From an uncultured Phycisphaerales bacterium (GTDB taxonomy: Bacteria; Planctomycetota; Phycisphaerae; Tepidisphaerales; Tepidisphaeraceae): a stretch of DNA of 64,000 bases. The translations under genes and the position numbers were made by a program. The DNA is taken from contig CAWJPJ010000006.1 of NCBI GenBank assembly GCA_963844715.1, positions 1 through 64,000 on the forward strand, in the 5' to 3' direction. The notes beneath the pieces were generated by a model. That model was not told where the DNA came from, did not search any database, and was given only the letters and a program-made list of their open reading frames with translations. How positions within the stretch are numbered: the first letter of the stretch is position 1; each line of letters starts with the position of its first letter. Of this stretch, positions 11,366 through 34,793 are shown piece after piece.

Positions 11366-11490
11366 GGCCGAGTCCTTTCTCAAAGGATGACGTTTGAGCC
11401 GCCCCACGCGGGGTGAGCTCGTGTAATAACCGGAGATTTTATGCTCCGTGTTCAACGTCCCGAGGAAGGCTCGGCTTCATAGTTTCTGTA

Positions 11491-11560: not shown

Positions 11561-11714
11561 GCAAGGGCGATGATTCCCTGGTACCTCCAGAGCGGAGCGC
11601 TGAGGCTTCCGCTGAATCGGGATCGGCGGCTAAAGAAAAAACCGAGTGGTCCACCGCGCCCGCCGGCGTGCGCGTGTTGAGCGTTCAACCCACTTCTTTT
11701 TTAGCCGCGGTTGT

Positions 11715-12086
11715 TCAGGATGCTTTGGCCAGTGAGTTGATGAGACGAATGACGGCGCGCTGATCCTTGTGAGGCAGGCGCGTGACCTGGCGGAACTTCT
11801 TCCAGAGCCGGCGCACGTTGGGATCGTCCTGCTCGCTTCTTCCTTTAGTCGTCTTGCCGTTCTTCATGCCAAGCAGTTCATCGGCGCTGACGCCCAGGGC
11901 GTCGGCCAGTCTGATGATCGCGTCCACCGGGGGATAGTCGGCTTCGTTCTCGTAGTAGGTGATGGCGCGTTGCGTCGTGCCCAACGTCTGCGCGAGTTGG
12001 ACCTGGGTGATGTTGCGGGCCTTGCGCAGCTCGGCCAGCCGCCGACCAAAGCCGGTCTGTTCGGGTTGTCGGGCGATGCGTGGCAT
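11715..12086 (-). CDS. XRE-family HTH repressor (allele 1)
   Basis: RLAELRKARNITQVQLAQTLG...YYENE...LADALGVSADELLG; divergent from the primase gene. Start chosen by similarity to the other two XRE copies. Confidence 0.9.
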   Translation of the reverse strand: MPRIARQPEQTGFGRRLAELRKARNITQVQLAQTLGTTQRAITYYENEADYPPVDAIIRLADALGVSADELLGMKNGKTTKGRSEQDDPNVRRLWKKFRQVTRLPHKDQRAVIRLINSLAKAS

Positions 12087-12251
12087 GTCGTCGGTGATGG
12101 TAAACCGCATGGGAATCTTCTCCGCAAGAGGGGCGAGCGCTTGCAATATACGTTAACGCGGATACTCTCTTGCACGGATATTATCCATGAAAAATATTTT
12201 ACTTTCCAGCGGATATTGCTTGACCGGGTTCCACGGAAGGAAGGCAAAAGC

Positions 12252-15200: not shown

Positions 15201-15649
15201 GACGCACCTGCAAAAGCTGGTGGACCTGGAGTACGTGCTGGTGCATCGCGGCGGGCGCGGTCAGTCGTTCGTGTACGAGCTTCTTTACGGCGGGGAAGGG
15301 ACTGACGGCAAACCGTTCGCCCTGGGCCTGATCGATCCCGACAGCCTGGGAAACTCCGCTTACGTTGAAAAGTTCGAGCATCAAAACAGCCGGTTCGAGG
15401 GGGGTTCGAGCCTCCATAGTGCCCCCATTGAGCCGGGTTCGTGCGCACGAAAGCGCCGAATCTCCCGGCAATCACGGGCCGGAATCCACGTCCAGCGCGG
15501 AAGCGGTCAAAATCGCGCCTCGGGAGACGCTTTCGGACGGCGCGCATCGTACCGATACATCAACGTACCCACCTTCTTCTTTAGCCGCCTCGACAAGCTC
15601 GGGACAGGCCGCCGATTCCAACGGCCAGGAGGTGGATCATGCCGCGTAG
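12252..15649 (+). CDS. CHC2 zinc finger-Toprim primase fused to AAA+/P-loop ATPase (frameshifted in assembly)
   Basis: [10 protein letters not shown]...WHCLGAC (CHC2); LCESIID and AYDRDDAG (Toprim); Pro/Ala linker; QSSSAAGKS (Walker A), LAIVEEE (Walker B), DEELLNR. Breaks differ from copy 2. Confidence 0.82.
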
Positions 15650-16917
15650 AGGCTGGCATCCCGGGCCAAGGGCGATCATCGGCGATCCCACCGACCCGCG
15701 CGGCATGGCCGCGCTGCGCGACCAATACCTGGACCACATGGCGGTGCTCAACTTCGCGCCCGACACCATCTACGTGCGGCGGGTCTACCTCAACTTCTTC
15801 GTCAAGTGGTGCCAGGAGCGCTCGGTCGTGCGCCCGGCGAAGTCACCAAGCCGATTGTGGACCGCTACCAGCGCTGGATGTATCAGTTCCGTTCTCCCAA
15901 GGGCAAGCCGCTGAGCTTCACCAGTCAGAACGGACGGCTGGCGGCGGTCAAGGCGTGGTTCCGCTGGCTGACGCGCTTCAACCATATCCTCTCCAACCCG
16001 GCATCCGATGTGGACCTTCCGCGCGTGGACCGCAAGCTGCCGCGTCACGTGCTGACGGCCAGCGAGGTCGATCAAATCCTCAACGGCACGGAGATCAAGG
16101 ACCTGCGCGGCTGAGGGACCGGGCCTTTTTGGAGACGCTCTACTCGACGGGATTGCGGCGGCGGGAGATGGTGAACCTGAGCATCTATGACGTGGACATG
16201 GAGCGCGGGACGGTGCTGGTGCGCAAGGGGAAGAACCGCAAGGACCGGATCGTTCCCATCGGCCAGCGCGCCATCCTGTGGCTGAGCAAGTACCTGTCCG
16301 AAGCGCGGCCGCAGTTGGCCCCCAACCGGGAGGAAGCCTTGTTCGTGACGCAGATCGGCGATCCGTTCACGGCCAACAGCGCCACGCAGCTTGCCCGTCA
16401 GTACGTGGAGAAAGCCAAGCTCCCCAGCGGCAAGCGCGGGGCGTGTCACCTGTTCCGCCACACGATGGCGACCTTGATGCTGGAAGGGGGCGCGGACGTG
16501 CGCTACGTGCAGGCGATGCTCGGCCACGCGGACATCAGCTCGACGCAGATTTACACGCACGTCGGCATCCGCACGCTCCAGCAGGTGCACGCGATCACGC
16601 ATCCGGCGGGCCTGGTCAAACGTCCGTCCAGCATCGGCGTTGCGGGCAATGTGTTGCCCGCTTACGGCGCCAACGAGGGATCGGACCTGCCGGACGTGCT
16701 GGTGGAAGATCCCGCGTGCCGGCGCGGGTTGAGGGAGGATCAACCGCTGCCGCGACCTGGGCGCGCGCCGCCGGTGAACGGGAACGCCGCCGATCTGGCT
16801 GACTTCCTGGCTCGTGATGATGACGATGACACCCTCGACGAGCTCGGGGCAGGCGACACCGGGGAAGCGGCCGGCGGCGCGGAAGTCGCGGCTTTTGGGC
16901 GCGCTGATGACGGCTGA
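15639..16917 (+). CDS. XerC/D-like tyrosine recombinase (frameshifted in assembly)
   Basis: RDRAFLETLYSTGLRRRE, VRKGK, HLFRH, LGHADISSTQIYTHV; start overlaps the primase stop. Confidence 0.88.
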
Positions 16918-17610
16918 TAGCGCCAACTTCCGAGCCGGCGCGGGGTTGCGTGGATCGACTATCAGCCGCGAAGCGGGCTATGAGCCGCAAGCTCCACTCG
17001 CTCGATCACTTACCGCCGCGGCTGATAGCCGCCTTTATCTTGCTCTACAACCTGACCCACTGGAAACCCACTGGGTCGCGGTTTTGGGCTAACTTCCCGC
17101 TCCGGTGGGACTTGCGAATCCCGCCGCCGCCGCGCAAGGTGCAAACACCTTGCCTCTCAAGGTCATAGGTTGCGCCAGGTCATGGCGGGACAGGGAGTTA
17201 CAAAAAGCGCACCTTGGTTCCTTTTACCTTGCCCTCACCCTTCAAACCTTCCTTCTTCTTCTTTTAGCTGCTGATTCAAACCCTCCGCTGTGCGCTGATC
17301 CGTCGTCGATCTGCGCGCTTCTCGTGCGCAGGCAGCCGCTATCCCACCCTCCTTAGCCGCCTCGTGGAGCGCACGTCTGCGCCGATCCTGCACACTGACG
17401 ACAGCTTGGGCGGCTAAAAAGGAAAGCTGTTGGAGCGCCGGATGCGCGGGTAAGATGCTCTCCCGACGTGCACGGCTGCGCCAACATCATCCTCCCTGGC
17501 CGTCGCCAGTTAAGCCGAAACCTGCCTCAAGGCGCGCAACGATCTGCGCGCCGATCGCGCCGGCAAAGTCGATCCTGTAACCGTTGGAAGGCATCGGGAT
17601 TGCGCGTTGG

Positions 17611-17638
17611 CTTGTTCCCGAATCGCATCGGACTCAAC
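17611..17638 (+). other. Putative recombinase site at the element right end (11-6-11 imperfect inverted repeat); identical at 29773-29800
   Basis: CTTGTTCCCGA-ATCGCA-TCGGACTCAAC, 7/11 dyad symmetry. Identity between copies stops 2 bp after it. Confidence 0.55.
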
Positions 17639-17722
17639 TAGTATTCCATGAGCAAACTTCTCCTGGGTTAAATTCTCCGGGAGTGTCGAGACCCGTTGGA
17701 CTTTTTTTGCGGGAGGTTTGCC

Positions 17723-18863
17723 ATGGTATTCGTTGGACTGGATACGCATCACGAAACGTCGACCTGTTGCGTGCTGGATGATCGAGGCCAGCGACTGGAG
17801 GGTCGGACGATCAAGGGTTCTTGGACGGAAACGGCTCGGTATCTTCAGGCGTTGCAACAGCGTGATGGCCGGCCGATGGCCGTCTGCTATGAGGCGTCGT
17901 GCGGTTACGGCGCGTTGCACGATCACCTGCGGACGTTCTGCCAGCAGGTGGTGGTGGCGCATCCTGGCCGGGTGCGATTGATCAGCCGATCCAAGCGGAA
18001 GAATGATCGGGTTGACGCCCAGAAGCTGGCCAAGCTGCTGTATCTGGACGAGGTTCCGCAGGTGCATGTTCCATCGGCCGAGGTTCGTTCGTGGCGGGAG
18101 TTGATCGAGCTGCGTCGTCGCCAGGTGCAGACGCGCACCCGGGTGCAAAGCCGGATTCGCGCGTTGCTGCGGACGTACAACGTGTGCATTCCCAAGCGGG
18201 GAAAGCCCTGAGACGCCGGAGGTGAAGCCTGCCGTCGCGGCGAGTGAAGCGTGCGCGCCGTTTAAGATTCTGTGGACGAACCGGGGCCACCGCTGGCTCA
18301 AGTTGCTGCAATGGCCGACGCCGGCGGTGTCGTTGCGGTGTGAATTGCTGGTGGAGGAACTGGAGCAGACGGAACGGGCCATCAAGCGGGTGACGGCGGA
18401 GTTGGACAAGCTGGCGGCCGGAAACGCCGGCGTGCAATTGCTGTGCACGATCCCTGGGGTCGGCTGTCGGACCGCCGAGGCGGTGGTGGCATATCTGGAC
18501 GATCCAGATCGTTTTGCCCGATCCAACCGGGTGGGATCGTACGCGGGTCTGGTGCCGTGCCAGGACAGTTCCGGGGGCACCGATCGACTGGGCCATATCA
18601 CCAAGGAGGGCCCGGCAACGATGCGCTGGCTGCTGGTGCAATCGGCCTGGCAGGTGGTGCGGCGCGAGCCCTTCATGCGGGCATACTTCAATCGCGTTGC
18701 CGGCGGGCAGAAGGAAAATCATAAGAAAGCTTTGATCGCCACGGCGCATAAGCTGCTGCGTTGCATGCATTCGATGCTGCGAACGGGCGAGGTGTGGAAT
18801 CCGCTGAAGGACGATGCCGCGAACGAGGCGAAGTCCGCCGCGACGGAAGAGAAGAGCGGCTAA
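17723..18863 (+). CDS. IS110 family transposase (split near 18210)
   Basis: MVFVGLDTHH, YEASCG, KNDRVDA, TIPGVG, SYAGLVP, HITKEG. Confidence 0.88.
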
Positions 18864-19109
18864 AGGAAAAAGATGGACCCTTGTAGGCGTCGGTAAGCGC
18901 CGATGATCGAGATGGGCACGGGATTGATAACCGGACTCCGCGGCAAGGCATGGGACCATACCCAGGATCCCGATACCTTGAATGGAGCCGGTTCGGATCA
19001 CGAAGAGTGGCACGCCGTCGATGAATGTTTTGACGGATGATGCCGGATAGATGCGTGGAACATCCCGAGCCTGAATCTCGTCCCCGTCTTGACACGGTTT
19101 GCTCATAGA
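18864..19109 (+). ncRNA. Predicted bridge/seekRNA region of IS element B
   Basis: TACCTTG (18974-80) equals the empty-target half at 17225-31 and 29387-93; AAGGCA (18945-50) is complementary to flank TGCCTT; ATAGATG (19047-53) equals the IS end plus core. Confidence 0.65.
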
Positions 19110-19553
19110 TGCCTTCATTCCTCAAATCTTCTCTTTCTTCTTTTAGCTGCTAATCCAAGCCATCCGCTGCGCACCTGGTTGCCGCCGATCGCGTGATTCT
19201 GGTGGCCGGGAATGATCCCCGACGTTGCGCATGTGCGTGCGCGAACAGCAGCTATCCCACCCTGAGCCGCCTGATGGAACGCATGTCTGTTTGCACTGAT
19301 CATGCACACCGACGGCAGCCTGGGCGGCTAAAGAGGAAAGCTGTTGGAGGTGCTGGATGCGCGGGTAAGATGCTCTGCCGACGTGCACGATTGAGCCAAC
19401 ATCATCGCCCCTGGCCGTCGCCGGTTAAGCCAAAACTCGCCTCTGTGCGCTTCTCGATCCGTGCGCACCTGCGACGGCAAATCGATCCCGTAAGCTTCGA
19501 CGCGTGTCGGGCTTGCGCATCGGGAAGGATAAAACACGCGTCGGAATCAACTA
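19110..19553 (+). mobile_element. Diverged right-end remnant of the primase/recombinase element
   Basis: Aligns by eye along its length with 17230-17640 (e.g. GGATGCGCGGGTAAGATGCTCT) and ends in TCGGAATCAACTA. Confidence 0.85.
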
Positions 19554-21053
19554 TCCATACACATATGATCTCGATGGCAACCGTTTGACGGATGTCCACA
19601 CCGGTCCCGGCAACGGCGCCAGCGGAACCACCACGTACACCTATAATGCCAACGACGAACTGACCCAGTCGGTCGCCAATGGCGTGACCACAGCCTATGG
19701 CTACGACAACAATGGCAGCCAAATCAGCGTGACCGTCGGTGGCACCACGACGCAGACCGACTTCTACGACGTCCGGAACCGCCTTGAGAAAGTCGTGGAT
19801 AGCTTCGGAACGACGACTTATGTGTATGACGATGCGGGAAACCGGGTACAGGAGACTACCAACGGCACAACGACGTATTACCTCATCGACGATCACAACC
19901 CGACGGGATATTCCAAGCCAATCGAGGTGCGTGTCGGTTCTCTGACAGGTAACCCAACAACGACGTACATCCTCTCGGATCGGGTTTTAGCGCAGGCTAA
20001 CAGTTCGGGCGCGGTGAGTTACCTCGTCATCGATGGATTGGACAACACTCGCGCCTTGGTCAACTCGTCGGGCACGGTGACGGCGGTTTTCAATTACGAT
20101 CCTTTTGGCGACGTGGTGGGTGCGACCTACACGTTTTCGAGCCCGCCAGCGACCTATATCCTTTTCCAGCAGACCATGTTCGATCCCGCATCAGGGTTAA
20201 ACATCTTCGGCGACGGGCGCGAGAAGAGCAGCCTGGTGAGGACAATTTCATCGAGGCCGACTCGCCCGGTTACAGCAGCAACCAGAATCCGATCACGCTG
20301 AATACGTATCTGCTGGATGGCGCGGACACCATCAACATGATCGATCCGAGCGGACACGACTTTGGTCTAGGCGACATCTTATTGTCTGCCGGCATTGACT
20401 CTGAATTGAATTCAATTGAGTTCACCGGCTTCTCGGCAGCCTTCAAAACGGTGCAGGGCGTTGAGGAAGGAGAAAATGCCAATCAGATTTTTGAAGGCTT
20501 CCTGATCGATCAAGCAGTAGGGGCAGCTATCGGGCTCGGTGCAGGATTGGCGCTTGGGGCATTCGGGGCATTAAGAAACGGAGTTGACCTAGGCGCTTTC
20601 TTCGATGACATCTCATCCGTTTTCTCCTCGTCGGAGCAAGTGGCGACTCTTAGTGCAACGGATGTCGGAGACGTCTTGCGCGTACGGAAAGCCGGGCACA
20701 GTTGGCATTCAAGTAGCGGGCAGAATAACGCCTGAAGGGATGGCATCACTTACGATTCAGAACAATGTGGAATATGCATTGGTATACAAAGCTGGTTCTG
20801 GGCCCAATGGGGCTGGAGGCACATACATCCTATATTCAGGAACAAAGAATAGTGTAAGTGTGCCGGTGGCATCAGATAGCTTTTTGATTTACCATACTCA
20901 TCCGCAGGGGAGCCCAGCTGCAAGTGACGCAGACCAAGCTGTCTTGCAGGCGTTGCGGTTGAGCGGATCCCCCCATGCTCGTCCCAGATAATCCCAATTG
21001 GCGGACAACCTTTTTCTTTCACCGAGACGATTTATAATAAATCTCGGAGTTAA
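19552..21053 (+). CDS. Orphan Rhs cassette 1 with JAB/MPN-motif toxin (5'-truncated, frameshifted)
   Basis: Begins YPYTYDLDGNR; DPSGHD; tip VEYALVY...HTHPQGSPAASDAD. Pieces 19504-20301, 20337-20735, 20605-20991. Confidence 0.75.
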
Positions 21054-21056
21054 ATT

Positions 21057-21283
21057 ATGACTGCCGAAGTGCAACGAGAATTTGAATCACTATGGACCAC
21101 CGAGAGGTGCACTACGGCATTATCGGTGCCGTGGTCCTGATTTTCGCGATAATCAACTACTTATCGTGAACAAAAAAACAAAAATGGCAACAATCATTGA
21201 GAATAATGAAATATATACGGAGGTCATTGGGAAAAATGCGCGAAGCGGGAGTTCCGATAGTTTACACAATGCCGAACGAGTGA
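21057..21283 (+). CDS. Putative immunity protein of cassette 1 (frameshifted)
   Basis: Small AT-rich ORF directly after the toxin; reconstructed MTAEVQREFESLW...KMREAGVPIVYTMPNE. Confidence 0.5.
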
Positions 21284-21392
21284 TCAGTATGAGGAAGTAA
21301 GGATATAAAAGAAGGACATAAGAGGGTCATGTCCAGAAGTAACCACTGATTACGCAAGCTAAGCGGTGTGGTGATATGCGGATGTAACTAGT

Positions 21393-23231
21393 ATGCAACT
21401 CGACGAAAACGCCGCCACCGATTCCTACGACGCCAACGGCAACAAGGTCTATGAATCCGATCCCAACGGCGATATCACCACGTATGGCTACTCTGACAAT
21501 CGTCTAACAAGTGAGACCGTCAAGAAAGGAAGCAACACGCTTTATAGCGTCAGTTACATCCTCAACGCCGACGGCACCAGAAAGTCCGACTCTGAGACTG
21601 AGTTACAGCCCGGCGGGACCACGGCGACCCTATCTACGACATGGACGTATGACGCTTTGGACCGGCTGACGGGGGAGACGATCACCAGCAGCTTGTCGGG
21701 TGGAAGCCAGACCGAGACCTGGTCGTACGATATGGACGGCAACCGGGTGAAGCAGGTCAAGGTCGCCGGCGGCGTGACCGACACCACGACTTACACGTAC
21801 AACGGCGACGACCAGATGACCCAGCAGGTGGACAGTTCCGCCGGGACCACCACGTTCGGGTATGACGCCAACGGCAGCCAGACCAGCAGCACCAACGGCA
21901 GCACCGTCACGACGTACGCGTACAATGTGCGCAACCAGCTCAGCAGCGTCACGACCGGCGGCGTGACGACCAGTTACCAATATGATGACTCCGGCAACCG
22001 GGTGAGCGAGACGACCGGCGGCACGACGACCTACTACCTGATCGACGCCAACAACCCCACCGGCTATCCCAAGCCGATCGAGCAGTGGGTCAGCACGACG
22101 GGCAGCAGGTCCACCGCCACGTTGAGCATGAGCTACATCATCGGCGATCGGGTGCTGGCGCAGGCGAACAGCAGCGGCGCGGTGAGCTACCTGCTGGTCG
22201 ATGGCCAGGACAACACGCGGGCGCTGGTCAACTCGTCGGGCGCGGTGACGGCGGTGTTCAACTATGACGCCTTCGGCAACCCCATCGGCTCGTGGAGTCT
22301 GACCACCGCGCCGACGACGATCCTGTTCCAGCAGACGATGGTTGACCCGGCTTCGGGATTGAACTTCGACGGGGGTCGTGAGGAAAAGATCGGGCAGGAC
22401 AACTTCATCGAAGCCGATCCGCCAAGTTACAGCAGCAACCAGAATCCGATCACGCTCAACTCGCACCTGCTGGACAATGCCGACGCAATCAACGTCATCG
22501 ATCCGAGCGGGCATGACGGACTCGATGAGCTTTTGGTCGGGCTTGGTGTTGCCACTGAAATAGGATTGGCGATTCTAAATAGCGCGGTTGTGACATCGCT
22601 GGTGCAGGCGGTGGCGACCGTTTCGCTGATCGAATTCGCGATCAATCCGGACTTCCAACAAAGCATCATTGCCGCAACCGGCGGCGATCTTACGAATTTG
22701 ACCGAGGTATTTGCGGGAGGCGTCAGCTATTTTGCGAATCTGGGAACAGTTGGGCAAACGGAGGCCGAGAGTACCGCGGCATTCGTGTCTAGTTTTGCTC
22801 CGGCGGCTGCTCGGGGATCGGACGCCGTGGTGCTCGACGTCGCGGCGATGCGGAACTTCTTCCTTGCTCGCGGACTGTCCACGGAGGCGGCAGATGGCTT
22901 TGCAAGCTCATTTAGCAATGGGATGGGCGTCTTGCGCGAGGTCAAAGCGGGCGAAACTTTCCTTCGATATTCCGACGAAGCAGGTAATGCCGTGGGAAGC
23001 TTCCTGACCAAAACTGCATATCCGACGCCGTCACAAGCGGTAGGTGCGTTAAACCTGGAGGACTTTAACAACGGAGCAACGCTGGTTCAGCAGGTAACGG
23101 CCACTCAGGATACGTATGTTTTGGAAGGCGGAGTTGCGGGTAGTGATTCGAACGCATACCAGGCAATTGCCGTTGACCAGAGCGCGTTCACCTATGGCCC
23201 GAGAGTCCCCACTGGGAGCAATCCGCCATGA
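21393..23231 (+). CDS. Orphan Rhs cassette 2, possible TNT/ART-like toxin
   Basis: Core from 21540 is near-identical to main gene 7757-~8690; DPSGHD; tip FLRYS...GSFLT...LNL...VLEGGVAG...YQ. Confidence 0.8.
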   Translation: MQLDENAATDSYDANGNKVYESDPNGDITTYGYSDNRLTSETVKKGSNTLYSVSYILNADGTRKSDSETELQPGGTTATLSTTWTYDALDRLTGETITSSLSGGSQTETWSYDMDGNRVKQVKVAGGVTDTTTYTYNGDDQMTQQVDSSAGTTTFGYDANGSQTSSTNGSTVTTYAYNVRNQLSSVTTGGVTTSYQYDDSGNRVSETTGGTTTYYLIDANNPTGYPKPIEQWVSTTGSRSTATLSMSYIIGDRVLAQANSSGAVSYLLVDGQDNTRALVNSSGAVTAVFNYDAFGNPIGSWSLTTAPTTILFQQTMVDPASGLNFDGGREEKIGQDNFIEADPPSYSSNQNPITLNSHLLDNADAINVIDPSGHDGLDELLVGLGVATEIGLAILNSAVVTSLVQAVATVSLIEFAINPDFQQSIIAATGGDLTNLTEVFAGGVSYFANLGTVGQTEAESTAAFVSSFAPAAARGSDAVVLDVAAMRNFFLARGLSTEAADGFASSFSNGMGVLREVKAGETFLRYSDEAGNAVGSFLTKTAYPTPSQAVGALNLEDFNNGATLVQQVTATQDTYVLEGGVAGSDSNAYQAIAVDQSAFTYGPRVPTGSNPP

Positions 23232-23515
23232 TGAGCGTCGATGCAGTAAAAAATGAAGTTGATGCCATTATTGAGATCCTGTCCCGGCCATTGACGCCTG
23301 AGGATATACGGATGGGATGGAATGACACCTTACGCCAAAGGTGGCATGATTGGTTCGTCCGAATCAAGACGAAGCTTAATGCGAACGTACCTTTTAAGCG
23401 GACCAGCGTTAACGTGACCTACGGCATCGCTTACGCTGGAATCCAAGAAGGTGCTTTATTTGATCGTGCTGCTCGTGTTGGTGCGATGCTAATGGAGATG
23501 GCGAGTCGGCCCTGA
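23228..23515 (+). CDS. Putative immunity protein of cassette 2
   Basis: ATGA overlap with the toxin stop; 95 aa. Confidence 0.7.
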   Translation: MMSVDAVKNEVDAIIEILSRPLTPEDIRMGWNDTLRQRWHDWFVRIKTKLNANVPFKRTSVNVTYGIAYAGIQEGALFDRAARVGAMLMEMASRP

Positions 23516-23774
23516 GACGTGGGCGGCGCTTTCTGTCTGTCACAAGAGGTACTCCCGTCGTCCCTGTAGCTCCGTCGCGTCGGCGTCGGCCCTCGCCCAG
23601 GAGCGCAGCACCGGGGGCCGATGACGAGGCGATGGAGCGCAAGGGCGATGATTCCCTGGTAGCTCCAGAGCGGAGGCGCTGAGGTCCGATATCCAGATCG
23701 CGCGATGCGCCGGCGTGCGCATGTCGATCGCTCAACCCCACTTCTTCTTTAGCTGCGGTTCGAGACGCGTGGAA

Positions 23775-24170
23775 TTACCCGGCCCTCTTGCCGCTGTGTT
23801 GGACGGCCAGCGCATCAATGAACTTCAAAACGGCCTTCTGGTCGTGCGCCGGCATCCGCTCAAGCAACTGCATACGTCGATAGATGCGCCGGCTGATGCC
23901 GTTGCCGCCGGCGTTGTGAGATTGCGCGGGCGCGATGCCCAACAACTCATCGGCGGTGACACCCAAAGCCTGGGCGAGTTGGCCGACCATCGCGGCGTGG
24001 GGCCTGACGCGGCCGCATTCATAGCTGGAGATAACGGCCTGGATCGTGCCGGCCTTCTCGGCCAGTTCGACCTGGGTAAAGCCGCGTTCTTTGCGCAGAC
24101 GCGCCATCGTCTGGCCGATTGTCTCGGCCTCGGTCTTGTTGCGCATCGGGCTGTGAGCGGTCCTGGGCAT
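23775..24170 (-). CDS. XRE-family HTH repressor (allele 2)
   Basis: MARLRKERGFTQVELAEKAG...SYECG...LAQALGVTADELLG. Confidence 0.9.
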   Translation of the reverse strand: MPRTAHSPMRNKTEAETIGQTMARLRKERGFTQVELAEKAGTIQAVISSYECGRVRPHAAMVGQLAQALGVTADELLGIAPAQSHNAGGNGISRRIYRRMQLLERMPAHDQKAVLKFIDALAVQHSGKRAG

Positions 24171-24318
24171 GGGATCGATTATACGGGCGACTCCGCGCAG
24201 CCGGCGTTTGGCCGTCTTGCAAATACAATAGGACGTTGTAATACTGGTGCCGGTATGAAGTCCACAACAAAGCCGTGTAAATGCTCTTGACAGGGTTCCA
24301 CGGAAGGAAGGCAAAAGC

Positions 24319-27300
24319 ATGAAGCGCATCCCCGACGACGAGATTGAGCGGTTGAAGCGTGAGACGGACCTGGCGGCGCTGGTGCGGGCCTCGGGGGTGG
24401 AGCTTGCGCCGCACGGGGCGGGCGGGGATCTGATCGGGCGTTGTCCGCTGCATGACGACCGCACGCCCTCCTTGGTGGTGACCGCATCGAAGGGGCTGTG
24501 GCACTGCCTGGGGGCGTGCGGCGTCGGGGGCAGCGCGATCGACTGGATCATGCGGACGCGCAAGACGGGGTTCCGCTACGCCATCGAAATCCTCCGGGAG
24601 ATTAACGGTTCGACAAGCTCACCGCAGGCGGGCGCGGGCGCTGCCCTGGGGACGGCACCCGCCTCGACAGGCTCGGGGCAGGCCGCGCCTTCCCCCGACT
24701 TCCCCAGGCGTCTGCCCTCGCCGCTGAGCTTTGACGCCGATGATTGGCAGCTTTTGGTCGAGGTCATCGACTATTACCACCGCTGCCTGAAGCAGACGCC
24801 GGCGGCGCTGGCGTACCTGCAAAAGCGCGGGATCGGCAGCAGCGAAGCCGTCGAGCATTTTAGGATCGGCTTCGCGGACCGCACCCTGGGTCTGCGGCTT
24901 CCCAACAAGCAGCGCAAGGCGGGAGCGGAGATACGGGAGCGGTTGGAAAAGCTCGGCCTGTACCGGGGCACGGGCGCGAGCACTTCAACGGCTGCGTGGT
25001 GTTCCCGATCATCGACCCTCAAAGCGGCCGCGTGACGGAAATTTACGGGCGCAAGATCGGCCCGCAGTTCCGGGGCCTGCCGATTCATCTGTACCTGCGC
25101 GGGGAGCACAAGGGGGTGTGGAACGAAAGCGCCCTGGCGGCGTGCGAGGAAGTGATCTTGTGCGAGTCGATCATCGACGCGCTGACGTTCTGGTGCGCGG
25201 GGATGCGCAACGTGACGTGCAGCTACGGGGTGCACGGCTTCACCTCCGATCACCTGGCCGCGTTCAGGCGGCATGGCACCAAGCGCGTGCTGATCGCGTA
25301 CGACCGTGACGACGCCGGGGAGAACGCCGCGGCGAAACTCTGGCCGCGGTTGACGGCCGAGGGGATCGAGTGCTTCGGGGTGCAGTTCCCCAAGGGGATG
25401 GACGCCAACGAATACGCGCTGAAGGTGATGCCGGCAAGCAAGAGTCTGGACCTGGTGGTGCGGCAGCGCGGTGTGGCTTGGCAATCCCGGCGCGCCGGGA
25501 TCGCGGCCGTCGCCGGCGATGACGGTGGGGATACCAGAGGCGGCTAAAGAAAAAAGTGAAGTGGCCGCGCCGGCGTTGTTGTCGGATGCGCCGCGCTCGA
25601 GCCTTTGCCTTCCGATCCTCCGACACCCGCGCCGCCGGCGTCGTCATCGGATGAGGCAAACGAAGCGACGCAAGAAGAAACAACCAGAACGCCGGCGTTC
25701 AACTCTGACGCGCCGGCGTCGTCGTCTCCCGCCACGGTCGAGTCATCATCGTCCGCGTCACTTCCTTCTTTAGCTGCCTCGATGAACTCGGAGCAGGCTG
25801 CCGATTCAATCACGCCACCGGCGTTCGTCTCGGTCGCGCCGATCGCGGCCGCTTCCGCGCGCCCGCCGGCGTTCCCGCCCCTGCCTTCCTCTTTAGCCGC
25901 TGATCCTGGCTTGCTCGATGCGCCGGAGTCTGAGCCGCCGGCGGCATCGCCGTTGCCGCGTGCTTCCGCGCCGCCGGAGGTGCCGGCGGAAGTCAAAGAA
26001 CAGGAAATCATCATCACGCTGGAAGGCCGGCGCTACCGCATCCGGGGGATGAGCAAGAACCTGGGCTTTGACGCGCTGAAGGTCAACATCCTGGCCTCGT
26101 GCGGGGAGTTGATGCACGTGGACACGCTGGACCTGTACGCTCACCGCTCGCGCAAGCAGTTCGCGGCGGACGCGGCGCGGGAGCTTCGGCTGGAGGAAAC
26201 CTTGCTGCGCCACGACCTGGGCAAGGTGCTGCTCAAGCTGGAGGAGTTGCAGGAGAAGCAGATCGCCGAGGCCACCAAGCCGAAGGAAAAGACGGTGAAG
26301 ATCACCGATGCGCAGCGCGACGCGGCGCTGGAGCTTCTTAAATCGCCCGATCTCTTGGACCGCATCCTGGCCGACTTTGAGCGCTGCGGCGTGGTGGGCG
26401 AAGCGACCAACAAGCTCACCGGCTACCTCGCCGCCACGAGCCGCAAGCTGGAGCAACCCCTGGCGGTCGTGCTGCAATCCAGCAGCGCCGCCGGCAAATC
26501 GTCGCTGATGGAAGCGGTGCTGGCGATGCTGCCGCCGGAGGAAGTGACCAAGTTCAGCGCGATGACCGGGCAATCGCTGTTCTACATGCAGGGGTCGGAC
26601 CTGCGCCACAAGGTGCTGGCGATTGTCGAGGAGGAAGGGGCGGAGCGCGCGAGCTACGCGCTCAAGCTGCTGCAAAGCGAGGGCGAGTTGACCATCGCCT
26701 CCACCGGCAAGGACCCGCAGACGGGCCGGCTCGTCACCCAGGAGTACCGGGTCGAGGGTCCGGTGATGATCTTCCTGACGACGACGGCGGCGGAGATTGA
26801 CGAGGAGTTATTAAACCGCTGCCTGGTGCTGAGCGTGAGCGAGGAGCGCGAGCAGACGCGGGCCATTCACATCATGCAGCGCGCAGCGCCAGACGCTTGC
26901 GGGCCTACTGGAACAGCGCCAGCGCGCGGCGGTGCTCGCGGTGCACCGGGACGCGCAGCGGCTTTTGTATCCGGTGCTGGTGGCCAATCCCTTCGCGGAC
27001 CGGCTGACGTTCCTGGACAGCCGCACGCGCAGCCGGCGGGACCATGTGAAATACCTGACGCTCATTCGCACGGTCGCGCTCTTGCACCAGCACCAGCGGG
27101 AGCACAAGACGGTGGAGCATCCGCCGGCGTCGGGGCAGTTCGTGGAATACATCGAGGTCACGCCGGCGGACATTGCCATCGCCAATCGGCTGACGCATGA
27201 AGTCCTGGGGCGCTCACTCGATGAGCTCGCCCCGCAGACCCGGCGCTTGCTGGTCATGCTCGATCAGCACGTCATGGGCGAGTGCCAGCGGCAGAAGATG

Positions 27301-27822
27301 CCGCGGAGTGATTACCGCTTCACGCGGCGGCAGGTGCGCGCGTTCGCCGGCTGGACGGACTTCGTGGTGCGGACGCATCTGCAAAAGCTGGTGGACCTGG
27401 AGTACGTGCTGGTGCATCGCGGCGGGCGCGGTCAGTCGTTCGTGTACGAGCTTCTTTACGGCGGGGAAGGGACTGACGGCAAACCGTTCGCCCTGGGCCT
27501 GATCGATCCCGACAGCCTGGGAAACTCCGCCTACGTTGAAAAGTTCGAGCATCAAAACAGCCGGTTCGAGGGGGGTTCGAGCCTCCATAGTGCCCCCATT
27601 GAGCCGGGTTCGTGCGCGGGTGAAAGTGAAGAATCCCCCGGTCCCGCCGGGTCCGAACGCGCCGATAGCGCAAACGGCTTCGAAATCGCGCCGCGGGAGA
27701 TGCCTTCGGACGGCGCGCAACGTACCGATGCATTGTCGTACCCACCTTCTTCTTTAGCCGCCTCGACAAGCTCGGGACAGGCCGCCGATTCCAACGGCCA
27801 GGAGGTGGAGCATGCCGCGTAG
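24319..27822 (+). CDS. CHC2-Toprim primase-AAA+ ATPase fusion, copy 2 (frameshifted in assembly)
   Basis: Pieces 24319-25035, 24996-25547, 25605-27200 and 26932-27822; same motifs as copy 1. Confidence 0.84.
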
Positions 27823-29090
27823 AGGCTGGCATCCCGGGCCAAGGGCGATCATCGGCGATCCCACCGACCGCGCGGCATGGCCGCGCTGCGGGACCAATAC
27901 CTGGACCACATGGCGGTGCTCAACTTCGCGCCCGACACCATCTACGTGCGGCGGGTCTACCTCAACTTCTTCGTCAAGTGGTGTCATGAGCGCTCGGTCG
28001 TGCGCCCCGGCGAAGTCACCAAGCCGATCGTGGACCGCTACCAGCGCTGGATGTACCAGTTCCGTTCTCCCAAGGGCAAGCCGCTGAGCTTCACCAGTCA
28101 GAACGGGCGCTTGGCGGCGGTCAAGGCGTGGTTCCGCTGGCTGACGCGCTTCAACCATATCCTCTCCAACCCGGCGTCGGACGTGGACCTTCCGCGCGTG
28201 GACCGCAAGCTGCCGCGTCACGTGCTGACGGCCAGCGAGGTCGATCAAATCCTCAACGGCACGGAGATCAAGGACCTGCGCGGACTGAGGGACCGGGCCT
28301 TTTTGGAGACGCTCTACTCGACGGGATTGCGCCGCCGGGAAATGGTGAACCTGAGCATCTATGACGTGGACATGGAGCGCGGGACGGTGCTGGTGCGCAA
28401 GGGGAAGAACCGCAAGGACCGGATCGTTCCCATCGGCCAGCGCGCCATCCTGTGGCTGAGTAAATACCTGTCCGAAGCGCGGCCGCAGTTGGCCCCCAAC
28501 CGGGAGGAAGCCTTGTTCGTGACGCAGATCGGCGATCCGTTCACGGCCAACAGCGCGACGCAGCTTGCCCGTCATTACGTGGAGAAAGCCAAGCTCCCCA
28601 GCGGCAAGCGCGGGGCGTGCCACCTGTTCCGCCACACGATGGCGACCTTGATGCTGGAAGGCGGCGCGGACGTGCGCTACGTGCAGGCGATGCTCGGCCA
28701 CGCGGACATCAGCTCGACGCAGATTTACACGCACGTCGGCATCCGCACGCTCCAGCAGGTGCACGCGATCACGCATCCGGCGGGCCTGGTCAAACGTCCG
28801 TCCAGCATCGGCGTTGCGGGCCACGTCCTGCCGGCCTACGGCGCCAACGAGGGATCGGACCTGCCGGACGTGCTGGTGGAAGATCCCGCGTGCCGGCGCG
28901 GGTTGAGGGAGGATCAACCGCTGCCGCGACCTGGCGCGCGCCGCCGGTGAACGGTAACGCCGCCGATCTGGCTGACTTCCTGGCTCGTGATGATGACGAT
29001 GACACCCTCGACGAGCTCGGGGCAGGCGACACCGGGGACGCGGCCGGCGGCGCGGAAGTCGCGGCTTTTCGGCGCGCTGATGACGGCTGA
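27812..29090 (+). CDS. XerC/D-like tyrosine recombinase, copy 2
   Basis: 357-aa ORF 27877-28950 has the full R-K-HxxR-H-Y set; indels near both ends. Confidence 0.9.
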
Positions 29091-29152
29091 TAGCGCCAAC
29101 TTCCGAGCCGGCGCGGGGTTGCGTGGATCGGCTATCAGCCGCGAAGCGGGCT

Positions 29153-29254
29153 ATGAGCCGCAAGCTCCACTCGCTCGATCACTTACCGCCGCGGCTGATA
29201 GCCGCCTTTATCTTGCTCTACAACCTGACCCACTGGGTCGCGGTTTTGGGCTAA
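29153..29254 (+). CDS. 33-aa hydrophobic small peptide (possible type I toxin)
   Basis: MSRKLHSLDHLPPRLIAAFILLYNLTHWVAVLG*. Copy 1 (from 16980) has an 11-bp insertion. Confidence 0.35.
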   Translation: MSRKLHSLDHLPPRLIAAFILLYNLTHWVAVLG

Positions 29255-29800
29255 CTTCCCGCTCCGGTGGGACTTGCGAATCCCGCCGCCGCCGCGCAAG
29301 GTGCAAACACCTTGCCTCTCAAGGTCATAGGTTGCGCCAGGTCATGACGGGACAGAGAGTTACAAAAAGCGCACCTTGGTTCCTTTTACCTTGCCCTCAC
29401 CCTTCAAACCTTCCTTCTTCTTCTTTTAGCTGCTGATTCAAACCCTCCGCTGCGCTGATCCGTCGTCGATCTGCGCGCTTCTCCGTGCGCAGGCAGCCGC
29501 TATCCCACCCTCCTTAGCCGCCTCGTGGAGCGCACGTCTCGCGCCGATCCTGCACACTGACGACAGCTTGGGCGGCTAAAAAGGAAAGCTGTTGGAGCGC
29601 TGGATGCGCGGGTAAGATGCTCTCCCGACGTGCACGGCTGCGCCAACATCATCCTCCCTGGCCGTCGCCAGTTAAGCCGAAACCTGCCTCAAGGCGCGCA
29701 ACGATCTGCGCGCAGATTGCGCCGGCAAAGTCGATCCTGTAACCGTTGGAAGGCATCGGGATTGCGCGTCGGCTTGTTCCCGAATCGCATCGGACTCAAC

Positions 29801-31788
29801 TATAGCATGGCGTACACTCTGAACCCCGACGGCACGCGGGCCACGGAAACCCAGGAGCAGGCGCAGGTCAGCGGCTCACCCATCTACACCTTCACCAGTT
29901 GGAGCTACGACGCCGAGGATCGGCTCATAGGCGAATCCCTGACCAACCTGACCAGCGGCTTTACGTTGCCGTCGGCGTATATCACCAACGGCGACTTCAG
30001 CGGTTCGATGACCTGGGACGGCTCGGGGGCGTACGCGTCGTCAAATCTGACCGAAGCGCAGGCCGGCATGGGCACCGGAGCAGTCCTCTTTGACCCGTCG
30101 CTGGGCATCAAGTACGGCGGCAACGGATCGGATTGGGTTCTGGTGCTCGACAACCAAGGTCAGGTCGCGACGATCTCCTATTCCTTAAGTTATTCGGGTG
30201 TGTTCACGGCCGATGGCGTGGTCAAGAGTTCAGAATTTACCAGCCCGGCCGGCTTCACGCTGAGCGGATCGCCGACCGGCTACACCGACACTTACTCCTA
30301 TGACATGGACGGCAACCGGATCGGCAAGGTTCATACGACGACGGCGGGTACGGACACCACGACTGACACGTACAACGGCGACAACGAACTGACCCAAAGC
30401 GTGGACAGCACCAGCGGGACGACGACGTTCACGTATGACGCCAATGGAAGCCAGTTGACCAGCACCAACGGCAGCAATGTCACGACCTACACGTATGACC
30501 TGCGCAACCGGCTGGCATCGGTGACGACTGATGGAGTGACGACGACTTACAGCTACGATAACGACGGGAATCGGGTCAGCGAGACCACCGGCGGAACGAC
30601 GACTTACTACCTGATCGACGCGCACAATCCGACGGGTTACGCCAAGCCGATTGAGGTGAAGGTCGGCTCGCCGACGGCAGCGCCCAGCACGAGCTACATC
30701 CTGGGCCTGAGCGTGATCGGTCAAGCCACCAGCGGCGCTGCCTCGTATCTGCTGGTTGACGGCCAGAACAACACCCGCGCCCTGGTCAACTCGTCAGGCG
30801 TGGTGACGGCCACGTTCAACTTTGATGCTTTCGGCAACGTGCTGGGTGTCACCTATACGCCGTCAAGTCCGCCGCCGACGATCTTCCTGTACCAGCAGAT
30901 GATGTACGACCCGGCGTCGGGATTGAACTTCACCGAGAGCCGTCAGACGCCGCTCGGCGCGCCTATTGGATCGAGCGTGACCCGTCCGGTTATGGCAACA
31001 ACGCGAATCCCATCACGCTCAATACCACCTTGTTTGACAACGCCAATCCCCTCATGTTCACCGATCCAACCGGGCATGATGGTTTGGCTGGGTTGTTGGT
31101 AGATATAGGCATTGAGGGATTGGAGGATAGTATCGAGTTACCCGCCGTCTCCAGCGCCGTGGCCGCGGGGTCGGAGGTTGGCGCATCCGCAAGTGTCGCT
31201 GATTCTGCCGCCATGCTGTTGGCGCGAGGGGCAACATACTTCGCCACCGTTTATGGGGCCGCTACGACACTGATTGATGGCGCTTACGCTGCCAGCAGCA
31301 TTATCGAGAAGGCAGTCGACGACGCCATTTGGAATGAGGTGCTGACCCACGCCCTGAATCATCAGGTGCTTAGCGCGACCGACTTTAAGTACCTCAACGA
31401 TCTTGCACAAAAAGACTTGGGCGAGAGCATTTATTTACACTATAGCTTTGTGAGTCAGGCCGCGAACTTTGCGTTTGGAATGCGAGATGCTACACAGGCG
31501 CCACCGCTCGGCTCTTACGTGACGACGGACACGTATTTGACAGGCTGGGATGCCCACAACTTCCTGGCGCTGCCAAGCTCCAATATTCAGGATGCAGAAT
31601 ACATCGTGCTGGTTAAACGTGGTCTTCCGGCCGTCGGTCCAAGCCTGGTGCCGGCTGGCTTTGATGGAGCTAGCCCACCGCGGTCTCTGCAAGGAGGTGG
31701 TATTCAATACACGTTACCACAGGGTTCAGGTGGTCCCGGAACGGTGTTTGGACCGATTCCTCTTCCACCTGGGTCCGTTCCTTCATGA
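29801..31788 (+). CDS. Orphan Rhs cassette 3, possible ART-like toxin (frameshift ~30960)
   Basis: Begins YSMAYTLNPDG at the element end; DPTGHD; tip LHYS...YVT...LALP...GGGIQY. Confidence 0.78.
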
Positions 31789-32474: not shown

Positions 32475-32531
32475 CTTTAACGGGCCGCTTGCTTCATCAA
32501 GCCAGTCGTAACATTCTCCCCCGTCGTCCCT

Positions 32532-34069
32532 TCTATGAGCCGAGCCGTGTCAAGTGTGTTGACGTTGCCAGGGAGCGAGTCGGTCGTTTTAACCTTCTAT
32601 TCAGAGCTTCCGCGTCCGGCATGGCGGAAGGGCAAGCCCTCCGTTTGTGCCGGGAATCGCGGGCCTATTCAACTGTACAATGCGGCAGGATGCGGAGGGC
32701 AAGCCCTCCGAATGCCCGCCAGCGCGACGCCCATTCTGTAGCGCGAGCTTTGCGAAGGGTTTTGCGCCTCCGATGGCTCAGGGACGACAACGGGCTGTCG
32801 CTGATGACGACCGGCAAACTCCGCCAACGCAACATCATTGACCTTTCCTCTTTAGCTGCCTTCTTCCGATCATCACGCCGGCGTCGGCATTCCCGTCGCC
32901 GCCGCGTGGTCTTTCCAATCGGTTCCGTCCGCAACATGGCCCACAGCTTGACCAGCAGCCTCCGGGCCACGGCGACGATGGCAATCTTCTTTCGCTTGTC
33001 GCTGCCGCGGCGGACGTTCTCATACACCTGCTTCATCCAGGTATTGGCACGCACGCCCAGCCAGGCGACCTCCACCAGCAATCCCCGCAGCAGGCGGTTG
33101 CCGGCGTGGCTGATGTGGCCCTGGCGATCGCTTTCGCCGCTCTGCCAGCGCCGTGGCGTCAGGCCCGAATAGCTGCTGACCTGCCGGGCACTCTTGAAAC
33201 GATGGGGATCGTCAATGATCGTGACCACCGCCTCGCTGAGGCGCGGGCCGACCCACGGGGCGGTCCTCAATTGCTTCACGCGCTGATCCGCCCTGGCCAG
33301 TTCCGCCAGCTTCAATTCCACCTGCCTGATCTGTTCTTCCAATCCCTCCAGCAGCTTGCAGTTCCACATGCAACTGGAAACAGCCACAACTGTTCCGCCG
33401 GCGCTGACGCATCCTGCGCCGCCTTGCTCCATTCGACGATTCCCGCCGCCGCCCAGGCTTTGTCACCGGCGGGCAGCTTCAAACCCTGGCGCTCGAAGAT
33501 GGCGCGGATGTTGTTCTTGATCATGGTTCTTCGGCCCACCAGGCCGTGGCGGTATTCGATAAACGACCGCCATTGCCTCACCTTCGTCGCCGGCACGTGG
33601 ACCGTCGGCAGGCATCCCATCTCCGACATCTGCGCCAGCTTCAGGGCATCGGTGCGGTCGGTCTTGTTCTTCACCAGCTTCCACTGCCAACGCTCGTCGT
33701 TGCCGTTGGCGACCTGGATCGGGATGCCCAGTGTTTCGGCTAGGTCGTGCACCCATCCTGCCGCCGGTCCCGCCTCAATCACCAGGCGATCGGGGGCGCG
33801 GTGGGTGAGCAAGTCGTGAATGGCAGCGGGATCAGTGGCCACCTTGCCGAACTCATGTTCGGCGGCTTTGCCTTCCATCGTGCCGTGATCGGTGATATAA
33901 TCCACAAAAACGCTCTTGTTCTTACCGAGATCGATAGCGAGAATCTTCATGGCCGAGTCCTTTCTCAAAGGATGACGTTTGAGCCGCCCCACGCGGGGTG
34001 AGCTCGTTAATAACCGGGGATTTTATGCTCCGTGTTCAACGTCCCGAGGAAGGCTCGGCTTCATAGTTT
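32532..34069 (-). mobile_element. IS1111-group element A, copy 2 (transposase 32873-33950, frameshifted)
   Basis: Near-identical to 9948-11485; CT core at 32530-31 and 34070-71. Confidence 0.92.
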
Positions 34070-34793
34070 CTGTAGCTCCGTCGCGTCGGCGTCGGCCCTC
34101 GCCCGTGGAGCGCACGCGCCGGGGGCCGACGCTGATGCGATGGAGCGGAAGGGCGACTCCCTGGTAGCTCCAGAGCGGAGCGCCGAGGTCCGGCTGTATC
34201 CTTCCACGTCCAGCCATGTCCAGCATCGCGCGGGTGCAACGCCGGCGTGCGCGCTGAAGCCCAACCCACTTCTTTTTTAGCTGCTGTAGCTGCCGCCGCC
34301 GTGTTCAAGACGCGCGGAATTATCCGGCTCTCTTGCCGGCGTGCTGCGCGGCCAGGGCGTCGATGAACTTCAACACGGCCTTTTGATCGTGGGCGGGGAA
34401 GCGCTCGAGCAATTGCATGCGCCGAAGCACGCGGCGGCTGACGCCGTTGCCGTTGGCTTTGTGGGATTGCGCCGGCGCGATGCCCAACAACTCATCGGCG
34501 CTGACGCCCAAAGCCTGGGCGAGTTGGCCGATCATCGCGGCGTGGGGCCTGACGCGGCCGCACTCATAGCTGGAGATAACGGCCTGGATCGTGCCGGCCT
34601 TCTCGGCCAGTTCGATCTGAGTGAAGCCGCGCTCTTTGCGCAGCCGCGCCATCCGCTGGCCGATGGTCTCGGCGTCGGTTCTGCTGCGCGTCGGGCTGTT
34701 GGCGATCCTGGGCATGGGCACAATTATACGGGCGACTGGGCGCGGGAGGGGTTGGGGACACCTTGCAAATACAATAGGACGTTGTAATACTGG
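34070..34793 (+). mobile_element. Left-end remnant of the primase/recombinase element (hairpin, XRE, part of the divergent promoter)
   Basis: Similarity to copy 2 ends after GGACGTTGTAATACTGG and is followed directly by an Rhs core. Confidence 0.8.
34320..34721 (-). CDS. XRE-family HTH repressor (allele-2 type)
   Basis: Close to the 23775-24170 protein. Confidence 0.9.
   Translation of the reverse strand: MPMPRIANSPTRSRTDAETIGQRMARLRKERGFTQIELAEKAGTIQAVISSYECGRVRPHAAMIGQLAQALGVSADELLGIAPAQSHKANGNGVSRRVLRRMQLLERFPAHDQKAVLKFIDALAAQHAGKRAG

Follow-up and report, generated by a model that had tools for sequence, protein, structure and literature searches.

We analyzed a 64,000-nucleotide (nt) stretch of DNA from an uncultured Phycisphaerales bacterium (assembly GCA_963844715.1, contig CAWJPJ010000006.1, positions 1 to 64,000; hereafter the window), in which a repeat unit of ~6 kb, here called element E, is interspersed with genes and gene fragments of Rhs polymorphic toxins. 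A self-comparison of the window aligned 12219-17640 with 24286-29802 at 91-99% identity. E is present twice, as E1 (11486-17640) and E2 (23550-29802), and once more as a 440-nt remnant, E0 (19114-19553), all on the plus strand; the left ends were placed at ~11486 for the first copy and at 23550-23564 for the second. The final 28 nt of the unit are the 28-mer CTTGTTCCCGAATCGCATCGGACTCAAC, which occurs in two exact copies, at 17611-17638 (the right terminus of E1, plus strand) and at 29773-29800 in E2, with 0 matches expected from 100 shuffles. E1 ends in ...TCGGACTCAAC TA, E2 in the 28-mer followed by TA, and E0 in GTCGGAATCAAC TA. An initial annotation of this DNA had placed the 28-mer at these two positions, its right arm in a third copy and a TA behind all three, and our analysis bears this out: TCGGAATCAAC lies at 19541-19551 in the third copy, where TCGGAATCAACTA is the sole part kept, and TA stands directly 3′ of all three right-end copies. 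What was described there as a diverged remnant does keep the right arm but is really a longer piece, the last ~440 nt of an older element copy, with ~80% identity to 17230-17640.

Read from left to right, the locus consists of the Rhs1 core, tip 1, a SUKH immunity gene, the insertion sequence IS A, E1, the insertion sequence IS B, E0, cassette 1, cassette 2 with a small open reading frame (ORF), E2, cassette 3, a second IS A, an element remnant (E3) and further Rhs fragments. The main toxin gene, Rhs1 (5226-9457, plus strand), matches the Pfam family RHS_repeat at 5226-7430 and 7427-9457; its start probably lies near 446, with ORFs in several overlapping frames spanning 446 to 9457. The tip now attached to the Rhs1 core begins at 7760 and forms the 3′ part of the gene (plus strand), and the hexamer TATAGC at 7760-7765 (plus strand), an attL-like left junction inside Rhs1, recurs at 29801-29806 after E2. 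A SUKH/SMI1-KNR4 immunity gene, part of the E1 cargo, follows at 9457-9906 (plus strand; PF09346, E = 1.5e-6). Three cassettes, all on the plus strand, lie further downstream. Cassette 1 (19554-20301; RHS_repeat), which we read as a displaced Rhs 3′ fragment, begins within a YD repeat (..NY PYTYDLDGNR..), and its coding continues in other frames to ~20990. Cassette 2 (21393-23516) comprises an Rhs 3′ fragment at 21393-23231 and a small ORF ending at 23516, together the presumed cargo of E2. Cassette 3 (29803-31102), likewise read as a displaced 3′ fragment, starts at the homologue of Rhs1 position 7762 (..NY SMAYTLNPDGTR..). RHS_repeat matches across the window fall at 5226-9457, 19504-20301, 21393-23231, 29630-31102 and 37040-40555. 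The locus thus has the makeup of an Rhs orphan-tip array, in which a full-length Rhs gene with its SUKH immunity gene is followed by 5′-truncated fragments that align to the Rhs1 core.

The DNA that follows the element ends had been taken to be unrelated in all three cases. This holds for one partner, an IS110-family element, but the other two are in-frame Rhs coding sequence: after 19553 and after 29802, YD-repeat coding sequence is in frame from the junction, and cassettes 1 and 3 encode ..NY PYTYDLDGNRLTDV.. and ..NY SMAYTLNPDGTRATE.., both of them Rhs YD repeats. The start of cassette 3 is the homologue of Rhs1 position 7760, where Rhs1 reads ..ACGCTT|TATAGC|GGCAGT.. and the junction at 29802 reads ..CTCAAC|TATAGC|ATGGCG... 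The same point marks the end of a long duplication, as Rhs1 5652-7766 is 99.95% identical to 37193-39308 in a second Rhs gene (at 37040) and this identity stops exactly at TATAGC. The proposal that a constant element end is joined to variable DNA is supported, with a tyrosine recombinase encoded just upstream. On the reading proposed below, the fixed end with variable partners would be an attR-type junction, and the partners would be displaced toxin tips.

Genes and right end of element E

The minus strand of E encodes an XRE/Cro-type helix-turn-helix (HTH) protein. The plus strand encodes first a protein in which a DnaG-type primase is joined to an MCM-like P-loop domain, and then a tyrosine recombinase; the ~0.7 kb that remain before the right terminus are non-coding. 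These genes lie in E1 at 11715-12146 (HTH, minus), 12246-15646 (primase/MCM-like, plus) and 15666-16632 (recombinase, plus). The E2 HTH gene lies inside 23775-24563 (minus), the primase/MCM-like gene at 24313-27819 (plus) and an intact recombinase gene, encoding 357 amino acids (aa), at 27877-28950 (plus). Measured against the intact genes of a sister-genus genome (G069), which encode a 1087-aa primase protein and a 383-aa recombinase, the E1 primase gene is in five frame pieces and its recombinase gene in three, whereas the E2 primase gene is in three frame pieces and its recombinase gene is intact. Metagenome contigs side with E2 over E1 at several indels (12818, 14144, 15832).

Using Pfam, we found CHC2 zinc finger, Toprim and HTH_3 domains in the E proteins, and PF00589 in the recombinase at 27877-28950 (E = 8.1e-41). 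The E2 recombinase passed the NCBIfam model NF002331 of the "XerC" subfamily (406.9 bits, cutoff 371) and failed both the XerC and XerD equivalog models (220.5 and 225.9 bits, cutoffs 335 and 330) and the integron integrase models (TIGR02249, 107.8 vs 265 bits; NF011946, 78.6 vs 435). Residues R138/R140, H249, R252, H275 and Y284 are invariant in 21 aligned homologues, and we take them to be the catalytic R..H-x-x-R..H/W..Y set of tyrosine recombinases. The C-terminal 560 aa of the primase protein gave no Pfam or PDB sequence match; when the C-terminal half was compared by sequence with PDB, Pfam and PHROGs, the only matches were to primases or to families of unknown function. A structural model of these 560 aa (7 sequences; mean pLDDT 62, pTM 0.55) had MCM helicase subunits as its top Foldseek match (E = 1.8e-8, TM 0.37), a protein atlas placed the C-terminal part next to the plasmid P-loop family PF27228 (score 0.98), and a Walker-A-like GKS is invariant in this half of the protein. 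Judging from the model, E thus appears to carry a primase and helicase-like replication protein.

The 28-mer had been assigned the 11-6-11 layout of an Xer/dif site, and our analysis does not support the analogy. The inverted symmetry amounts to 7/11 complementary positions, which is at chance level (reached by 60% of 2000 shuffles of a 64-nt window at the junction; p ~0.6). By hand count on the alignment, the proposed left arm is kept at 4/11 positions in the remnant and at 6/11 in the sister-genus element, and it falls outside both blocks that are invariant among nine aligned related ends, GTCGGA(C/A)TCAACTA and TC.GG.TTGCG. Palindrome tests at and around nine junctions gave nothing that survived correction for multiple testing. 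We searched the 4.55-Mb assembly (8 contigs, 85% complete) and found no further site within 6 mismatches of the 28-mer, which argues that it was not copied from a chromosomal dif, although the host dif itself was not identified in this search. We consider it very improbable, then, that the 28-mer is a dif-like site used by host XerCD, as in integrative mobile elements exploiting Xer (IMEX), or the product of low-specificity, one-ended integration. The XerC-named recombinase subfamily, the 7/11 symmetry and the three differing partners would all fit such an origin; the symmetry is, however, at chance and not conserved in the remnant, the assembly holds no second dif-like copy, the element encodes its own recombinase and has a defined left terminus, and the partners are 3′ fragments of toxin genes in every lineage examined. 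The suggestion of one-ended or low-specificity capture fares no better, as the unit has two defined ends and a cargo and is flanked in relatives by direct repeats inside a toxin gene. What may remain of it is a loose recognition of the target on the toxin side, because the toxin-side half of the junction is very different between elements.

Rfam (whole window at the gathering threshold; 16800-19700 at E up to 1) and ARAGORN gave no matches, which argues that the right end is not a tRNA, a tmRNA or a known RNA target. The terminal motif TCGGACTCAAC had no conserved placement behind the recombinase gene in 78 distant loci, described below. A metagenome pattern, GGATTGCG-N18-28-TCGGAMTCAAC, was discarded as too loose: among at least 120 matching stretches, 80 loci were examined and true relatives were only L134 and L160. 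A comparison of the right-end DNA with 60 relatives gave matches limited to an internal 180-nt segment (17054-17236), the terminus being unmatched. This non-coding segment of the E right arm is ~80% conserved and has no Rfam match. A segment of the same type lies elsewhere in the assembly, on contig C7 at 950324-950505, behind a toxin gene and two immunity paralogues and adjoining IS B, and others are present in three related genomes (G036, G001 and G034; loci L012, L013 and L014).

Related elements in other genomes and metagenomes

Among 141 genomes of the same order, close relatives of E were limited to four copies in one genome of another genus (G069), at 68% identity and arranged as two tandem pairs. 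All of their right ends (4/4) read ..GTCGGACTCAACTA, followed by CTCCACAAATACCTCTATGCC (encoding LHKYLYA, the end of the Rhs core) and then by four different toxin tips. Each pair is preceded by a full-length Rhs gene in which the 21-mer CTCCACAAATACCTCTATGCC recurs with 1-3 mismatches. Using a protein-guided scan, we obtained 78 loci from species-representative genomes, with recombinases 48-58% identical, spanning Acidobacteriota, Planctomycetota, Myxococcota, Gamma-, Beta- and Alphaproteobacteria and other groups. Many of these loci are on short contigs and several can occur in one genome; all of the annotated ones (6/6) have the HTH/primase/recombinase module.

Two isolate genomes are the clearest examples. 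In Allorhodopirellula solitaria CA85 (L035), a 7101-bp unit forms a perfect tandem (99.96% identity), and the 13-bp sequence TGCCCCAAACAGT marks its boundaries in three copies. The first of these sits within a 1553-aa ORF, 447 nt ahead of the stop codon; no Pfam family matches this ORF, which we take for a toxin gene because of its surroundings. Behind the third comes ..APNSTAGRVVSGGCFVAGTPV.., where a HINT-type pre-toxin domain starts; this domain is the displaced old tip. Dyella sp. 2YAF14 (L087) has a single 8392-bp unit with a 43-bp flanking repeat (91% identical, encoding FGNALGNAAIAGM), the left repeat lying inside a 1613-aa He_PIG/LysM toxin gene and the right repeat opening a 533-aa displaced fragment. 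A Rhodanobacter locus (L064) has a similar layout, with a toxin gene and an Imm70 immunity gene. In a metagenome-assembled genome (MAG) of Planctomycetota (L059) the common region is a 97-bp Rhs core end, LSNDPIGF..DPSGL, and a Polyangiaceae MAG (L056) behaves in the same way, with 460 bp of homology between the upstream toxin gene and the DNA behind E. A Bryobacterales MAG (L101-L107) holds at least 7 copies, whose right ends run into KERDDESGLDYF..RYY..GRF.

Downstream sequence of 700 nt or more was available for 64 of the 78 loci, the remaining 14 being too short, and in 19 of these 64 the Rhs core-end motif RYY....GRF.S.DP occurs within 3 kb downstream on the same strand. For 50 loci the downstream sequence reached 2 kb or more, and in 19 of them the two longest downstream ORFs contain Rhs, toxin or immunity Pfam families (RHS_repeat, TEN_YD-shell, PLA2, CdiA_C, Tlde1, Pesticin, AHH, CDI_toxin_EC869, PT-HINT, HNH_5 with DUF4265, and Imm32). 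Combined, the motif and Pfam tests account for 27/50 loci, or 31/50 with four directly inspected loci. A same-strand repeat shared by the upstream region and the DNA behind the recombinase gene is present at 18 of the 26 loci with both flanks, although in at least two cases (L103, L107) it is the element itself that is repeated.

Other features of these loci concern the element's own edges. Between the recombinase gene and the right end, the Dyella locus has a pair of RelE-like toxin and HTH antitoxin genes (L087, 11039-11661), four acidobacterial loci (L074, L077, L083, L084) have an HTH_37 ORF and L079 has a PIN-domain ORF. Short tandem repeats lie at the left boundary, just outside the HTH gene, in G069 (GCCGCTTGGCGTGC xN, L028 ~10360-10436, that is, G069:C1:38361-38435) and in L059 (AAGAGTAAGGTGTC xN, ~13900-13985). 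They could serve as iterons or as binding sites of the arm type.

Peat, permafrost and soil metagenome runs match parts of 16000-19600, and we compared the short Logan contigs of four such runs with 7000-21000 at 90% likeness. Position 17638, the end of the 28-mer, is joined to 7760 in contigs of two of the four runs, a step back of 9879 at which 2 letters (TA) fit either side. These contigs come from different studies (X1, depth 7, shorter side 35 nt; X5, depth 2.4, 46 nt). This joint, ..TCGGACTCAAC|TATAGCGGCAGT.., is what one would expect if the unit made up of tip 1, its immunity gene and E1 existed in a circular or tandem form. It is not the junction of E2 with cassette 3, because cassette 3 is ~74% identical to Rhs1 (first 35 nt, hand count), below the 90% required. 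Three of the four runs (X1, X2, X3) have a contig in which an Rhs1-type core (8692) leads, across 12 other letters, into the cassette-1 tip (20331). Elsewhere, therefore, cassette 1 is found as an attached tip, and this link is natural evidence of tip reassortment.

This distribution also bears on another account of the window, a plain segmental duplication of a ~12 kb block in which E is immobile. Such a duplication would fit the spacing of the two copies, 12.1 kb within one locus, and their 91-99% identity, but their flanks differ on both sides, a third end with 80% identity exists, and E is also found in G069 and in peat metagenomes, its family occurring in many phyla, often in multiple copies and on short contigs. 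We rejected this account on the element's distribution and regard it as scarcely credible.

Proposed exchange of toxin tips by E

Taken together, these results make it likely that E is an integrative element, probably capable of its own replication, and that it carries out Rhs "C-terminal displacement" by swapping tips in toxin genes. This reading starts from the anatomy of the unit, its Rhs fragment partners and the same layout in other phyla, together with the tandem units, the direct repeats inside toxin genes of relatives and the metagenome joint of the right end to 7760. On this proposal the 28-mer would be the right terminus of an integrative mobile element, and the mobile unit would comprise the 3′ part of a polymorphic-toxin gene, its immunity gene and E. 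In the circular form of this unit, the right end of E would abut the first bases of the toxin fragment that the unit carries. The recombinase would catalyze recombination between this circle junction and the corresponding point in a resident toxin gene (Rhs ..CTT|TATAGC.. in this case), with cleavage presumably at or close to these points. The incoming tip would be fused in frame to the resident N-terminal part, and the old tip with its immunity gene would be pushed downstream of the right end of E as an "orphan"; repeated insertions would then build up the alternation of tip, E, tip and E. The primase/MCM-like gene and the iteron-like repeats at the left boundary in G069 and L059 suggest that the circle may exist as a free replicating form.

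Several observations weigh against this reading. The identity common to the window junctions is only TA or TATAGC, a very short core, and IS B destroys one junction; classical tyrosine recombinases need 6-8 bp of identical overlap. No palindromic core site at the junctions has statistical support, the best palindrome offset summing to 37 against 24.75 expected (9 junctions, 36 offsets tried). Cassette 1 joins one YD repeat further on than cassette 3. The start of cassette 2 is away from any element end, 137 nt upstream of TATAGC, and another cassette (at 41836) abuts an IS5-like fragment, so other processes also shape the locus. E1 has at least 4 frameshifts in the primase gene and 2 in the recombinase gene, and E2 has 2 in the primase gene. 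Rhs1 is likewise split over five overlapping ORFs, and these many single-base frame changes may reflect either long-read assembly errors or decay. A search for an empty site with cassette 3 among 60 relatives gave only partial Rhs homology, and no excision, circle or empty site was seen for this genome. The metagenome joint of 17638 to 7760 could equally be a tandem copy, or an attR beside a tip of the Rhs1 or cassette-2 type in another strain. Lastly, 19 of the 50 loci with sufficient downstream sequence have no recognizable toxin feature there.

Some of these observations would be accommodated if E were a passenger, the orphan arrays arising from RecA-dependent homologous recombination between conserved Rhs cores, as in the classical model of C-terminal displacement, and the E recombinase doing something else. 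The long homologous stretches that the upstream toxin gene shares with the sequence following E (97 bp in L059, 460 bp in L056, 21 bp in G069), the 2.1-kb Rhs duplication at 99.95% identity in the window and the cassettes that do not start at element ends all fit such a history. We nonetheless consider it unlikely: within a lineage, the nucleotide at which element DNA gives way to toxin DNA does not vary between copies, the identity goes down to 13 bp (L035) or 2-6 bp (window), too short for RecA, and the duplicated unit in L035 and L064 includes E and ends exactly at the repeat. A second alternative is that E is a stationary, integron-like platform whose recombinase captures cassettes of tip and immunity gene at an attI-like site in the right end. 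There is indeed a constant site by a tyrosine recombinase gene with variable cassettes on one side, and ACTCAAC happens to fit the integron inverse core consensus RYYYAAC. Yet the recombinase scores well below the cutoff of the integron integrase model (TIGR02249, as above), the arrays alternate E and cassette and the identical tandem units contain E, no attC-like repeat bounds the cassettes, and the conserved left terminus of E lies behind the immunity gene; we judge this alternative to be distinctly improbable.

If E does exchange toxin tips, its targeting may be set by its cargo. On visual inspection, a GGA(G/C)TC motif lies near the junction in the element-side ends from the window, G069, L059 and L035. 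The toxin-side sequences are almost wholly different. The toxin-side halves across lineages are TATAGCGGCAG, TGCCCCAAACAGT, CTCCACAAATACC, TGAGCAATGACCCC, GTTCCAAACGCGGG and CGTTTGGGAATGCG; since they differ although the recombinases are 50-70% identical, the recombinase may recognize the element-side half-site only. The GGA(G/C)TC end would then be read by the recombinase, and the other half would be set by homology between the toxin fragment and the resident gene. We put forward only tentatively the idea that E-type elements are the long-postulated episomal vectors of toxin-tip exchange, with targeting set in this way. If true, one partner of this tyrosine recombinase would be fixed and the other "free", defined by homology, and a change of cargo alone would retarget the element family to any toxin gene.

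Tip acquisition and the pile-up of orphans have been known since 2009 only as "C-terminal displacement" via an unseen circular intermediate. In their treatment of Rhs displacement, Jackson et al. 2009 (PMC2935791) proposed a circular intermediate and RecA-type recombination. The window resembles the loci considered in that treatment in having a full-length Rhs gene with immunity genes behind it and orphan tips that retain part of the core, and in the idea that tips arrive on a circular intermediate and displace old ones. It differs from that account in that each tip is accompanied by a recombinase gene and a primase/MCM-like gene, and in that the junction is at a fixed nucleotide of the element. 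In the portion on integrases, Steele et al. 2017 (PMC5727410) reported integrase-like genes by Rhs loci in the bee-gut bacteria Snodgrassella and Gilliamella, suggesting Rhs capture and leaving their role open; element boundaries, att sites, cargo and replication genes are not described in that portion. A 2026 preprint (10.64898/2026.07.13.738213), in the passage concerned, cites Xer-dependent systems by poly-immunity loci in Xenorhabdus and Photorhabdus. We also considered chloroplast rhs, primase and integrase genes of Bryopsidales, but in the relevant descriptions these occur in different species and regions and so do not form this element. Searches of open-access and bioRxiv full texts gave no description of a tip-carrying recombinase/primase element that inserts in toxin genes.

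The minimal module of E recalls several other classes of mobile DNA. Phage-inducible chromosomal islands (PICIs), P4-like elements and tycheposons combine a tyrosine recombinase, a Cro/CI-type regulator and a primase-helicase; they are site-specific and often in tandem, and they integrate in tRNA genes or intergenic att sites with other cargo. E has the same minimal module as these satellite-like elements, but it integrates inside a toxin coding region and supplies a new in-frame 3′ end, and its recombinase gene lies on the right side, followed by ~0.3-0.7 kb of non-coding DNA. Like integrons, E has a tyrosine recombinase gene by a constant site and exchangeable cassettes on one side; unlike them, it has no attC sites, does not match the integrase model and repeats the platform with each cassette. 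IMEX elements use dif and XerCD (e.g., CTX phage), and their tandem integration is common. E shares with them a recombinase of an Xer-like family and tandem integration, but has its own recombinase, no similar site in the assembly and a toxin ORF as target. By analogy, E may work like a small satellite-type integrative replicon with its att site in a toxin ORF. It would thus be a rare mobile element with an attachment site inside an ORF, whose insertion creates a new functional gene fusion. E would also be a widespread and apparently undescribed vector of polymorphic-toxin tip exchange, ranging from Planctomycetota and Acidobacteriota to Gammaproteobacteria and Myxococcota. Such a discrete element would give tip exchange a concrete, testable vector, with three cultured carriers (Allorhodopirellula solitaria CA85, Dyella sp. 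2YAF14 and Rhodanobacter sp. A1T4).

Insertion sequences and other features of the window

Two IS110-family insertion sequences, each with PF01548 and PF02371 (DEDD_Tnp_IS110 and Transposase_20), adjoin the copies of E. IS A (9944-11485, minus strand; domains in 10289-11455) lies in the left terminus of E1. A second copy (32528-34069, minus strand) again abuts an element left terminus, that of the E3 remnant (34070-34793, plus strand), which consists of the left terminus and a diverged HTH gene and is 81% identical to 23564-24247. One metagenome contig has CCGTCGTCC before 11486, that is, the left terminus of E without IS A. IS B (17641-19113, plus strand), whose transposase is split into 17696-18211 and 18222-18863, lies exactly at the right junction of E1; two more copies are on another contig, and IS B is also present in other contexts in metagenome contigs. 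Comparing three copies of IS A, we found all of them (3/3; 9944-11485, 32528-34069 and, on contig C6 of the same assembly, G000:C6:535159-536962) at the identical point of the element left terminus (CTCCCGTCGTCC|CTGTAGCTCC). IS A and IS B seem to target element termini sequence-specifically.

At 41640-41835, an antisense 3′ fragment of an IS5-like transposase, read from its translation, is cut off exactly at the start of an Rhs cassette (GCGTCAGT TACATCCTCAAC); the TATAGC point is a few bases away. Further downstream, five tandem repeats of ~306 nt (62-71% identical) lie at 60409-61825, inside a 1353-aa ORF on the minus strand (59255-63313).

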